A DNA stretch of 64,000 nt from Escherichia coli (GCF_003334385.1 NZ_QOWN01000011.1), one strand, 5' to 3'; shown: positions 44,087 to 50,434, counted from the first letter of the stretch. A program made the numbers and translations. The notes: generated by a model from the letters alone, not told the origin.

Positions 44087-45307
44087 TTAGCTCAAGGTAT
44101 GGGTTACTTCCTGAATTTTGTCACCATCCAGCTCATGTTCAAAGCTGCGCAGACGTTTGTAGATAGACATCAACTCAACCAGTGTGGTCCATGAGTTAAT
44201 CAGGTACTGGAAAGCACCGCGAACCTGACCAAAAACGTTGGTAATCTGCGTCATCAGGCCGAGCGTAATCGTACCGGCAACAATTGACGGAAACAGCAAG
44301 AACAAACCGAAAACGTTATCGACCTGCAAATAGAGAATGCGGGCGATGTTGAAATACATATAGTGAAAATAGAGGCGGAAATAGTTTTTCCGTACGGCGC
44401 TAAACAGCTCGCGTACCGTAGGCGGCGTCGCGCGCGTGGCATCGTCTTCACCATAAACCAGCTCTTTACGGTAGGCAGCCTCTACACGCTGGTTTTTAAA
44501 CTCCAGCCCCGGCAGTTTGATCCCTACCACTGCCAGCAATCCGGTCCCCATCAGCGACCAGACGATTACGGCAATCACCAGACCATACGGAATGTGCCCG
44601 ATAATCGGCAGCTCCGGCACATGCGCGGAGAGCGTTACCAGCACCGGCAGGAAGGCGATCAACGTCATGATGGCGTTGATAAAACTGACGCCCATATTCT
44701 CCAGCGTTGAAGCAAAACGCATGGTGTCTTCCTGCACACGCTGTGCGGCCCCTTCGATATGACGCAGTTGTTGCCAGTTCGCCATGTAATATTCGTTCAT
44801 CGCTGTACGCCAGCGGAACACGTAGTGACTGACAAAGAAGTTGTTCAGCACACTGATCACCACAGCGATCAGCGCAATCCCCAGAAAGACGCCCACTTCG
44901 CGGTAAAATTGTTCGATGGTGACTTTATGCGGCGAACTTAGCGCGGTTTGAATCAGATCATAGAACGGCGCATACCAGGCGTTGACGGCGACCCCGACTT
45001 CCACCAAAAACCAGGTGACGAAGATGATCAGTGCAGTACCGAGTATTGACCAGTATTGCCAACGATGCGGGCTGTAGATAAACCAGAACAATGCAAAAAG
45101 TCCTACGCAAACAATGTAGTAAGCGTAAAAAATCAGGAAATCCAACGACCAGAAACGCGCGGCGCTAATCGGGATCTGCCCGGAAGCGCCGGTGATACGC
45201 GCCACCCAGTCACCCCCACCGGCTTGCCAGAAGATAACGGCAATCAATGCCCAAACGAAGGCCGAGAGAAAAAACGTTCCCGGCTTTGGGAAAAAAGACT
45301 TAAACAT
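44087..45307 (-). CDS. sbmA: peptide antibiotic/peptide uptake transporter SbmA
   Basis: 406-aa product [27 protein letters not shown]...; SbmA/BacA family. Confidence 0.93.
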
Positions 45308-45658
45308 ATGCACTCCTGCTAACTTCTTATCGTTTTAACAACTGCTGTGTATTAACCGCATGACCGCTACAAAGCGTCAGCCAAATGAAACCGCCCATTG
45401 TGACCCATAGCAAGGCGCTTAGTTCGCCAGCCTGACCATAAGAATTGTTTCGACGGATTTCACAAACCAAAGATTGTTTACATAAGCGGATTAACACGCG
45501 CAGGATCACAAATGCAGGCATTGGTGAGCAGGAAAAAGATCGTGTTTACGCGCCGTTACGTTTTTAACACTATTATTGCACTAATTCGCCCTTTGCAATC
45601 TATCAATGAGTAGTATAAATACGCTCAGTTACCTTCATTCAATCTATGGACACCACCG

Positions 45659-46816
45659 TTGAAACGTAGTCTGCTTTTTTCTGCCGTGCTGTGTGCGGCG
45701 TCATTGACCTCCGTCCATGCGGCGCAGCCGATCACTGAACCGGAGTTTGCCTCTGATATTGTCGATCGTTATGCCGATCATATTTTTTACGGCAGCGGTG
45801 CCACGGGGATGGCTCTGGTTGTTATCGACGGTAACCAGCGCGTCTTTCGCAGTTATGGCGAAACGCGACCTGGTAATAACGTTCGCCCGCAGCTGGATTC
45901 GGTCGTGCGTATTGCTTCCCTCACCAAGCTAATGACCAGTGAGATGCTGGTGAAATTGCTCGACCAGGGGACCGTGAAGTTAAACGATCCGCTAAGTAAA
46001 TATGCTCCGCCAGGCGCACGCGTGCCAACCTACAATGGGACGCCCATTACGCTGGTCAATCTGGCAACCCATACCAGCGCCCTGCCCCGTGAACAGCCCG
46101 GTGGCGCGGCACATCGTCCGGTGTTTGTCTGGCCAACGCGCGAGCAACGCTGGAAATACCTTTCTACGGCGAAGCTGAAAGCCGCGCCAGGCAGTCAGGC
46201 GGCGTACTCTAACCTTGCGTTCGACCTGCTGGCAGATGCACTGGCGAATGCGTCCGGCAAGCCTTATACCCAGTTGTTTGAAGAGCAGATTACCCGTCCA
46301 TTGGGGATGAAAGACACCACCTACACCCCCTCACCGGATCAGTGCCGCCGTTTAATGGTTGCTGAGCGCGGTGCCAGTCCGTGCAATAACACGCTGGCGG
46401 CAATTGGCAGCGGCGGCGTCTATTCCACGCCTGGCGATATGATGCGCTGGATGCAGCAGTATTTGTCATCTGATTTTTATCAGCGCAGTAACCAGGCAGA
46501 TCGCATGCAGACGTTGATTTATCAGCGCGCGCAGTTTACGAAAGTGATTGGCATGGATGTCCCCGGCAAAGCGGATGCGCTTGGTTTAGGTTGGGTATAT
46601 ATGGCCCCGAAAGAGGGTCGTCCGGGGATTATTCAGAAGACAGGCGGTGGTGGCGGTTTCATTACCTATATGGCGATGATCCCGCAGAAGAATATTGGCG
46701 CGTTTGTGGTGGTCACTCGTTCGCCGTTGACGCGCTTTAAAAATATGAGCGATGGCATCAATGACCTGGTGACCGAGCTAAGCGGGAATAAACCGTTGGT
46801 TATCCCCGCGTCCTGA
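45659..46816 (+). CDS. ampH: class C beta-lactamase-related penicillin-binding protein AmpH
   Basis: 385-aa ORF with signal peptide and SxxK motif (IASLTKLMT). Confidence 0.93.
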   Translation: MKRSLLFSAVLCAASLTSVHAAQPITEPEFASDIVDRYADHIFYGSGATGMALVVIDGNQRVFRSYGETRPGNNVRPQLDSVVRIASLTKLMTSEMLVKLLDQGTVKLNDPLSKYAPPGARVPTYNGTPITLVNLATHTSALPREQPGGAAHRPVFVWPTREQRWKYLSTAKLKAAPGSQAAYSNLAFDLLADALANASGKPYTQLFEEQITRPLGMKDTTYTPSPDQCRRLMVAERGASPCNNTLAAIGSGGVYSTPGDMMRWMQQYLSSDFYQRSNQADRMQTLIYQRAQFTKVIGMDVPGKADALGLGWVYMAPKEGRPGIIQKTGGGGGFITYMAMIPQKNIGAFVVVTRSPLTRFKNMSDGINDLVTELSGNKPLVIPAS

Positions 46817-47505
<689 letters not shown>

Positions 47506-47506
47506 T

Positions 47507-50434
<2,928 letters not shown>

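Follow-up and report, generated by a model that had tools for sequence, protein, structure and literature searches.

The structures closest to the one described here are the intrinsic terminators of Escherichia coli, the overlapping bidirectional terminators of the same organism, convergent overlapping gene pairs and the mRNA duplexes at convergent 3' ends in yeast. The junction of ampH and iprA has features in common with each of them. Like E. coli intrinsic terminators, it has a stem (7 + 5 bp, about -15 to -20 kcal/mol) and a U-rich tract, UUUAUUCAUUU, 12 nt past the stop codon of a monocistronic gene. Unlike the usual ones, this hairpin is located wholly within a convergent coding sequence with every stem base under coding constraint, and its U run is interrupted and, in the Enterobacter group, absent. 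Overlapping bidirectional terminators (Ju et al. 2019, after the summary in bioRxiv 10.1101/2022.10.23.513370) similarly combine a convergent pair with a palindromic hairpin, which at ampH/iprA lies in the inferred overlap. In contrast to them, the wobble pairs at ampH/iprA indicate selection on one strand, and on the iprA strand the hairpin precedes the stop codon. Collision-type pairs, according to the same preprint, use a mechanism that is most efficient at high expression, whereas ampH and iprA are weakly expressed.

With convergent overlapping pairs (PMC4161906, PMC2478687) ampH/iprA shares the tail-to-tail arrangement without intergenic DNA, and in Kluyvera, Pseudocitrobacter and some Enterobacter the two genes have 4 nt, TTAA, in common. 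Yet gene overlaps are generally reported to turn over fast, while in E. coli ampH and iprA have no common base and the junction is stable within a few bases throughout the family. Finally, as in the 3'-end mRNA duplexes of convergent yeast genes (PMC6993858), short spacing gives complementary 3' UTRs and cross-talk is possible in principle. The yeast duplexes are eukaryotic, involve long 3' UTRs and are experimentally supported, whereas the complementarity of ampH and iprA transcripts is a prediction from sequence.

The window, i.e. the whole stretch of 64,000 nucleotides of E. coli DNA that was analyzed, contains the two genes as follows.

45659 to 46816, plus strand: ampH coding sequence, 385 aa, annotated TTG start, TGA stop at 46814-46816 (ORF list, RefSeq).
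46817 to 47440, minus strand: iprA (yaiV) coding sequence, 207 aa, TAA stop being the complement of 46817-46819 (ORF list, RefSeq).
46814 to 46819, no strand assigned: abutting stops TGA/TTA, zero intergenic bases (sequence, RefSeq).

The sequence at 46808-46825 reads ...gcg tcc TGA TTA ata ctc... A sequence-only reading of the window had claimed that the ampH TGA is directly followed by the complement of the yaiV stop, leaving no room for a terminator. The open reading frames and the RefSeq annotation of two genomes confirmed this, with 0 nt between the stops. The RefSeq gap is 0 in NCTC9038, which is 100% identical (ampH 5360-6517, iprA 6518-7141 of L001), and in K-12 MG1655 (iprA 394506-395129, ampH 395130-396287); window positions were converted by K-12 = 441946 - window. 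The gene names given in that reading were correct as well, yaiV being the older name of iprA. For the iprA start RefSeq gives 47440 (207 aa), while the ATG of the longest ORF is at 47485. Pfam HTH_46 was found on IprA homologs, and the iprA product is a CRP-like DNA-binding protein. Of 5426 complete E. coli genomes searched by megablast, 5420 contained the ampH/iprA region. In E. coli the genes share no coding bases (spacing 0), which sets them apart from convergent overlapping genes in the strict sense. Because there is no room between the stops, any 3'-end signal must sit inside the partner gene.

A gap of zero is not uncommon among convergent genes and by itself ordinary. In K-12 the coding sequences overlap in 75 convergent pairs (Huvet and Stumpf, PMC4161906), out of about 704 such pairs in total (2026 preprint, bioRxiv 10.64898/2026.03.23.713779); thus about one in nine pairs is tighter than ampH/iprA. 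These published counts were used in place of a hand sample of the K-12 annotation (five convergent pairs in 50 kb, gaps of 34-193 nt), which was set aside. The unusual aspect of the junction is its persistence across the family and not the zero gap. We collected junctions from loci found with IprA as the query and from 80 species-representative genomes, and located both stop codons of each by tblastn and extension. The spacing was between -4 and +5 nt in 72 of 87 distinct Enterobacteriaceae junctions: -4 nt (TTAA in common) in 13, 0 nt in 17, 1 nt in 12, 2 nt in 16 and 3-5 nt in 14. Spacers of 11-17 nt were seen in 8 junctions, of 33-44 nt in 6 and of 157 nt in 1. The gene order autotransporter-iprA> <ampH-sbmA is Enterobacteriaceae-wide.

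The RNA running on from ampH past its stop codon folded into one dominant hairpin with an MFE and centroid energy of -20.9 kcal/mol, followed by a U-rich tract.

46829 to 46859, plus strand: hairpin 1, candidate ampH terminator stem inside iprA codons 194-204 (fold, covariation, wobble asymmetry, synonymous constraint).
46859 to 46869, plus strand: U-rich tract UUUAUUCAUUU directly 3' of hairpin 1 in ampH sense (sequence).

The core stem consists of 7 bp, GGCAAAC (46830-46836) with GUUUGCC (46852-46858), closed on the outside by an A-U pair (46829/46859); the inner stem, GGUUG/CGACC, has 5 bp and one bulged A. In E. coli the U run is interrupted, with U at 5 of its first 8 positions and at 7 of its first 10. 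Stem and tail span 12-53 nt past the ampH stop and are encoded by iprA codons 190-204 (...YIEMNKGKLVAINRLPSEY*). The hairpin segment by itself folded with -20.1 kcal/mol in ampH sense vs -14.8 kcal/mol in iprA sense. Hence the E. coli hairpin has the sequence features of an intrinsic terminator, a stable G+C-containing stem and an adjacent U tract downstream of the ampH stop. With a simple terminator scan, hits in the region did not exceed those in shuffled sequence, and just the inner stem was recovered, in a wrong register. Scanning 45300-47700 on both strands against Rfam 15 yielded no match at E-values up to 1. A REP-like repeat origin of hairpin 1 was rejected, as the hairpin is present in the window as a single copy.

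Conservation of hairpin 1 was scored over its 13 pairs in 86 distinct sequences, aligned without gaps. In these 86 species 91.9% of the pair cells were paired, a value matched by 0 of 500 column shuffles, which ignore phylogeny. As a control, registers slid by 1-3 columns were only 25-56% paired. Covariation was 0.253 vs 0.168, and 69 cells were changed on both sides of the stem vs 26 expected. The 8 core pairs were 99% paired in ampH sense. The clearest case is the pair formed by the third positions of Lys196 and Arg202, which is AAA/CGT in 53 and AAG/CGC in 20 sequences, all changes being synonymous. A neighbor-joining tree required at least 6 independent joint switches, and both states occur within Enterobacter and within Lelliottia. 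Rare GGT/TTA double changes likewise preserve pairing. Because both changes at Lys196/Arg202 raise the G+C content, we checked for an effect of GC3. The two positions were mutual best correlates among 413 variable iprA sites with a phi of 0.86, while phi with GC3 was only 0.25, and GC3 drift was rejected as the cause of the covariation.

The region of hairpin 1 is also under the strongest synonymous constraint in iprA. Synonymous codon identity peaked at 0.69 at residues 187-207 (windows starting at 187-199) with a mean of 0.44 and a standard deviation of 0.08 for the gene. Individual codons illustrate the point: Gly195 is kept as GGC with a synonymous identity of 0.93 vs 0.25 for Gly187, and Leu203 is kept as the non-preferred TTG with 0.78 vs 0.28-0.30 for Leu181 and Leu184. 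The U tract is conserved in Escherichia, Citrobacter, Salmonella and Raoultella. In the Enterobacter/Lelliottia group it is replaced by CCGGCUCAUAUU with 2 U in 10 positions; the stem is conserved there and even lengthened by G-C pairs. Thus the stem cannot be a canonical intrinsic terminator in that group, where it may have a role only in protecting a 3' end made by Rho.

The transcript that uses the stem can be read from its wobble pairs, since a G.U on one strand becomes C.A on the other. Among the cells of the 8 core pairs that deviate from Watson-Crick pairing, 24 were G.U only in ampH sense, 3 only in iprA sense, and 3 were mismatched in both. TTG was changed to CTG in 10 sequences, the combination AAA/CGC occurred in 4, and CGT was replaced by CAT, an amino-acid change, in 6; all three retain pairing in ampH sense and lose it in iprA sense. 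Their synonymous mirror images, AAG/CGT and CTG to TTG at Leu197, were not seen in the 86 sequences. In addition, the fold was more stable in ampH sense than in iprA sense in 68 of 86 species. From the wobble asymmetry and the fold stability we therefore concluded that the structure is selected in the RNA running on from ampH.

The integrity of the stem was then set against the distance between the genes. Where the spacer measured at most 5 nt, every one of the 7 core pairs was intact (72 of 72 species). The same held for 8 of 8 species with 11-17 nt, but only for 3 of 7 with 33 nt or more. The long spacers, those of Salmonella, Buttiauxella and Cronobacter, carry a separate canonical terminator for ampH: GUCGCGCCU...AGGCGCGAC then AUUUUUAUU in Salmonella, GCAGGUCGA...UCGACCUGC then UUUUUU in Buttiauxella, and AUAACGGCGCC...GGCGCCGUUAU in Cronobacter. 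The in-gene stem is mismatched in Buttiauxella, Cronobacter and S. enterica subsp. arizonae. Pluralibacter, which is equally divergent and has a spacer of 4-5 nt, has kept it. Exceptions are Salmonella enterica and S. bongori, which keep the in-gene stem despite the spacer terminator. An IprA homolog of Atlantibacter without neighboring ampH has retained the KGKL...KLP motif with a degenerate stem, and Kosakonia cowanii, which is devoid of yaiT-iprA, has a different hairpin after ampH. Taken together, the in-gene stem is tied to the adjacency of ampH and decays with a spacer terminator or when ampH is absent.

We then turned to published transcript data. SMRT-Cappable-seq lists ampH as a monocistronic unit with transcription start sites at K-12 396318, 396319 and 396363 (PMC6131387); this data set contains no unit for b0375 and no transcript end near the junction. 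Term-seq under three conditions lists no 3' end in K-12 394.5-395.3 kb (PMC7815308). Both genes are weakly expressed under standard conditions, and the lack of 3' ends in the published maps is probably due to low expression. A Rho-dependent region was reported for the ampH strand with a Rho score of 2.48 and p of 5.5e-5 (PMC7815308).

46630 (K-12 395316, minus strand), plus strand of the window: peak of the Rho-dependent region (Adams et al. 2021, PMC7815308 supplementary file 2).

For the 800 nt on either side of K-12 395316, direct RNA-seq gave 56 reads upstream and 57 downstream when bicyclomycin was absent; in its presence the counts were 98 and 247 (PMC7815308). The downstream 800 nt comprise the ampH 3' end and iprA antisense; hence the rise with bicyclomycin shows that Rho limits transcription of the ampH strand across iprA in antisense direction. 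The equal coverage without drug argues either for a hairpin that is not fully efficient or for antisense promoters inside iprA. The iprA gene is A+T-rich with a G+C content down to 0.37.

The reading that we favor is that hairpin 1 and its tail probably constitute the intrinsic terminator and 3'-end protector of ampH in an old, compacted gene pair, where iprA has its own promoter and is ended by Rho; we hold it with moderate confidence. According to it, ampH and iprA would be an old, maximally compacted tail-to-tail pair, in which the 3'-end structure of ampH would be housed in the partner gene because no intergenic DNA remains. Hairpin 1 together with UUUAUUCAUUU would terminate ampH transcription and shield the mRNA 3' end. 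The RNA is predicted to end at about 46864-46870 (K-12 about 395076-395082, minus strand) as judged from the position of the tract, so that roughly 50 nt of 3' UTR would lie antisense to the final 17 codons of iprA. Readthrough farther into iprA antisense would be stopped by Rho. The sequence-only reading had stated that the two transcripts must overlap at their 3' ends. This premise is sound and gains backing from the conserved hairpin: from sequence and comparison, ampH RNA is expected to extend over the last ~50 nt of iprA.

On the side of iprA, the gap to the upstream autotransporter gene contains several candidate signals.

47528 to 50434, minus strand: yaiT, intact autotransporter gene of 968 aa upstream of iprA.
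47493 to 47522, minus strand: iprA promoter, -35 TTCACT at 47522-47517, 18-nt spacer, -10 TTTAAT at 47498-47493 (hexamers from PMC3946193).
47514 to 47492, minus strand: predicted CyuR site GAAGAAATACTGGTAATTTAATC, overlapping the iprA promoter (PMC11408624, placed on the sequence).
47459 to 47486, minus strand: conserved hairpin AAUGCCCGUCAA-GGAU-UUGACGGGCAUU between the iprA promoter and the start codon.

Genomic SELEX reported the sigma-70 promoter TTCACT-18-TTTAAT between yaiU and yaiV and flagged it as H-NS-associated (PMC3946193). yaiU is an old name for part of yaiT, and in K-12 yaiT is interrupted by IS3. Cysteine induced yaiV with a log2 fold change of 4.5 (PMC11408624). The hairpin in the gap has compensatory changes in C. 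rodentium, Yokenella and Trabulsiella, and in Yokenella and Kluyvera a U-run comes after it. It might form a 5' stem in the iprA mRNA, terminate yaiT transcription or halt transcripts in antisense direction. Because of the promoter, the CyuR site and the hairpin in the gap, iprA is probably a transcription unit of its own. Thus the yaiT-yaiV unit that had been assumed from the sequence was not supported, given a promoter, a predicted CyuR site with cysteine induction and a conserved hairpin between the two genes.

For the 3' end of iprA we considered a second hairpin.

46782 to 46809, minus strand: hairpin 2, GCGGGGAUAACC..GGuUUAUUCCCGC, in the last 11 ampH codons, iprA sense, followed by a poor U tract (fold).

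Pairing in hairpin 2 reached 76% of cells (slid registers: 35-52%), but mismatches were numerous, and no excess of synonymous constraint was seen at the 3' end of ampH. With these properties and the poor U tract it was left as a weak candidate for an iprA terminator; a role as an iprA 3' structure is possible, but weak. The GC skew of the plus strand is about +0.2 at 46350-46800, which renders the iprA-sense RNA beyond the stop C-rich and G-poor. Such RNA would suit Rho loading. No convincing intrinsic terminator was seen for iprA, whose transcripts would probably end in a Rho-dependent manner inside the ampH coding sequence.

How do other explanations of hairpin 1 fare? The stem folds in both senses (-20.1 and -14.8 kcal/mol) at a convergent junction, and so it might act as a bidirectional terminator, at which polymerases from both sides pause and are released by collisions, ending the transcripts of ampH and iprA. 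Since the collision model needs a hairpin and no U tract (bioRxiv 10.1101/2022.10.23.513370), this would even fit the Enterobacter group. Yet the iprA-sense stem ends about 10 nt upstream of the TAA, and termination there would generate non-stop mRNAs. The wobble pairs favor the ampH sense 24:3, and collisions work best for highly expressed pairs (bioRxiv 10.1101/2022.10.23.513370), while ampH and iprA are weak. We regard a bidirectional terminator as unlikely. A role of the stem for iprA itself, in mRNA stability or translation termination, or as a palindromic operator GGCAAAC-N15-GTTTGCC for a dimeric protein, is very unlikely in our view. It is true that the iprA-sense stem forms with 82% of cells paired, that symmetric changes of the half-sites are also compatible with a palindromic protein site and that the iprA product is a CRP-like DNA-binding protein. 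But TTG to CTG (10), CGT to CAT (6) and AAA/CGC (4) are A.C in iprA sense and G.U in ampH sense with mirror variants almost absent, a protein site would not withstand repeated independent switches from A-T to G-C, and the stem decays where ampH is absent or otherwise terminated and iprA is kept. The notion that the stem has no function is the one to which we give the least credit, and we consider it highly improbable. In that case the stem would be a by-product of codon preference and of the conserved peptide KGKLVxINRLP, and neutral compaction would account for the abutting stops. The peptide is in fact highly conserved, GGC, AAA, CTG and AAC are preferred codons, and simple terminator-like patterns are equally frequent in shuffled sequence. 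On the other hand, the non-preferred TTG is kept at Leu203 (0.78), Gly195 differs from Gly187 (0.93 vs 0.25), no other site in the gene correlates with either paired site as well as its partner does, irrespective of GC3, and Atlantibacter and Cronobacter retain the peptide motif without the stem.

A regulatory purpose of the arrangement was weighed in the same way. Convergent transcription or pairing of the 3' ends, which the sequence-only reading had raised as interference or antisense pairing, could make ampH and iprA antagonistic and tie cell-wall remodeling to an oxidative-stress regulator. An overlap of 3' ends is unavoidable by anatomy, the arrangement is maintained across the family, iprA responds strongly to an inducer (log2 fold change of 4.5 with cysteine, PMC11408624) and ampH-strand transcription over iprA is limited by Rho. 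However, the predicted overlap is short (~50 nt), deletion bias alone also predicts long persistence, about one in nine K-12 convergent pairs is packed as tightly or tighter, several lineages gained terminator-bearing spacers and retained both genes, and in RIL-seq ampH appears solely as a CDS node of low degree, with yaiV absent. We therefore judge such antagonism to be quite unlikely. The same data bear on a small RNA from the ampH 3' UTR. The RIL-seq-derived tables contain neither an ampH 3' UTR node nor yaiV, the only entry being 'ampH CDS' with a degree of 1 and a very low sRNA score. A 3' UTR-derived, Hfq-dependent sRNA was rejected, as the hairpin and the U tail are present but support from RIL-seq is absent. 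There is a slim chance that the stem is more than a terminator and that the ~50 nt of ampH 3' UTR, with their perfect complementarity to the iprA mRNA end, work as a cis-antisense element or are set free as a small RNA, thereby coupling AmpH, a peptidoglycan enzyme, to IprA, a regulator of peroxide resistance. If true, this coupling would explain why the junction has been kept within a few bases through the history of the Enterobacteriaceae.

Neither the two genes and their adjacency nor the phenomenon in general is new. A published description of the embedded ampH stem or of its covariation was not found in the sources searched. Functionally, hairpin 1 looks like an ordinary intrinsic terminator, set apart only by lying within the coding sequence of a convergent gene. 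Returning to the intrinsic terminator of ampH as the preferred reading, the locus is a clean and well-sampled case of a 3'-end signal inside the coding sequence of a neighbor. Its value lies in the synonymous covariation, in a wobble signature that names the transcript using the stem, and in the natural decay of the stem once a spacer terminator appears. The assumption of a simple co-transcription of yaiT and iprA is corrected, and the position at which the ampH mRNA ends is now predicted. Caution is advised when the 3' end of iprA is deleted or recoded 'silently', e.g. in knockout collections, as this may alter the expression of ampH.

In Escherichia coli K-12 a second Rho-dependent region was mapped at K-12 coordinate 391117 on the minus strand, antisense to the autotransporter gene yaiT, with reads of 63/44 in the absence of bicyclomycin and 201/418 in its presence (supplementary file 2 of Adams et al., PMC7815308). 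Thus we concluded that Rho-suppressed antisense transcription spans the whole yaiT-iprA segment in K-12. Two features of this segment in the window were as follows.

47459-47486, minus strand: strong hairpin AAUGCCCGUCAA-GGAU-UUGACGGGCAUU, separating the iprA promoter from the start codon of this gene
47528-50434, minus strand: yaiT, an intact autotransporter gene of 968 aa

The hairpin was conserved with compensatory changes, e.g. GUC/GAC to AUC/GAU in C. rodentium. Yokenella and Kluyvera carry a hairpin at the equivalent position which is followed by a U-run and resembles a yaiT terminator. Since the U/A-rich side of the E. coli hairpin lies on the opposite strand, its sequence is consistent with an element that might stop antisense transcripts arriving from ampH. 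The yaiT gene of K-12 MG1655 is a pseudogene split by IS3B; because it is intact here, the window derives from a non-K-12 E. coli. NCTC9038 and CM19 matched it at 100% over the tested stretch.

Synonymous-site conservation of ampH peaked in windows starting at residues 259-261 (about 46420-46460, residues about 259-268) and not at the 3' end, with values of 0.69-0.76, while the mean over the gene was 0.50 (sd 0.06). In several genera ampH and sbmA are separated by an additional gene of the isochorismatase family, which E. coli is lacking; the carriers were loci L005, L006, L009 and L093 (C. amalonaticus, Raoultella type, Enterobacter and Cronobacter).

The junction of ampH and iprA varied between genera. 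Kluyvera, Pseudocitrobacter and some Enterobacter showed a coding overlap of 4 nt, in which the stop codons share a TTAA readable on both strands (loci L009, L039, L044, L045, L049, L051, L053, L055, L065, L069, L070, L073 and L078). In C. amalonaticus (L005, L019) the spacing of iprA and ampH was 157 nt; a G+C-rich, highly structured insertion of 157 nt replaces the final ampH codons, AmpH has 379 aa with the C-terminal end ...LSQNRF, and the ancestral junction ...CCCGCATCCTGATTAA persists as a relic beside the iprA stop.

Two records of the locus were unusual. P0073, an ENA protein of 259 aa, has a beta-lactamase (AmpH-type) Pfam domain, yet is 99% identical to IprA over 61% of the latter; it may result from a rearrangement or misassembly, or from a gene called on the wrong strand, across the ampH-iprA junction. 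A contig labelled Chryseobacterium sp. 18061 (L081) bears an enterobacterial ampH-iprA locus nearly identical to that of Citrobacter sp. 18056 (L080) from the same study; mislabelling or contamination of this assembly is the probable cause.

Finally, many IprA clusters were partial or altered. E. coli strain L9 (H1, a match among the complete genomes) carries an IS1 within the ampH-iprA region. Because multiple E. coli strains have an interrupted or truncated copy of iprA (H1; proteins P0008, P0009, P0011, P0025 and P0082), the data suggest that iprA is often lost in E. coli.
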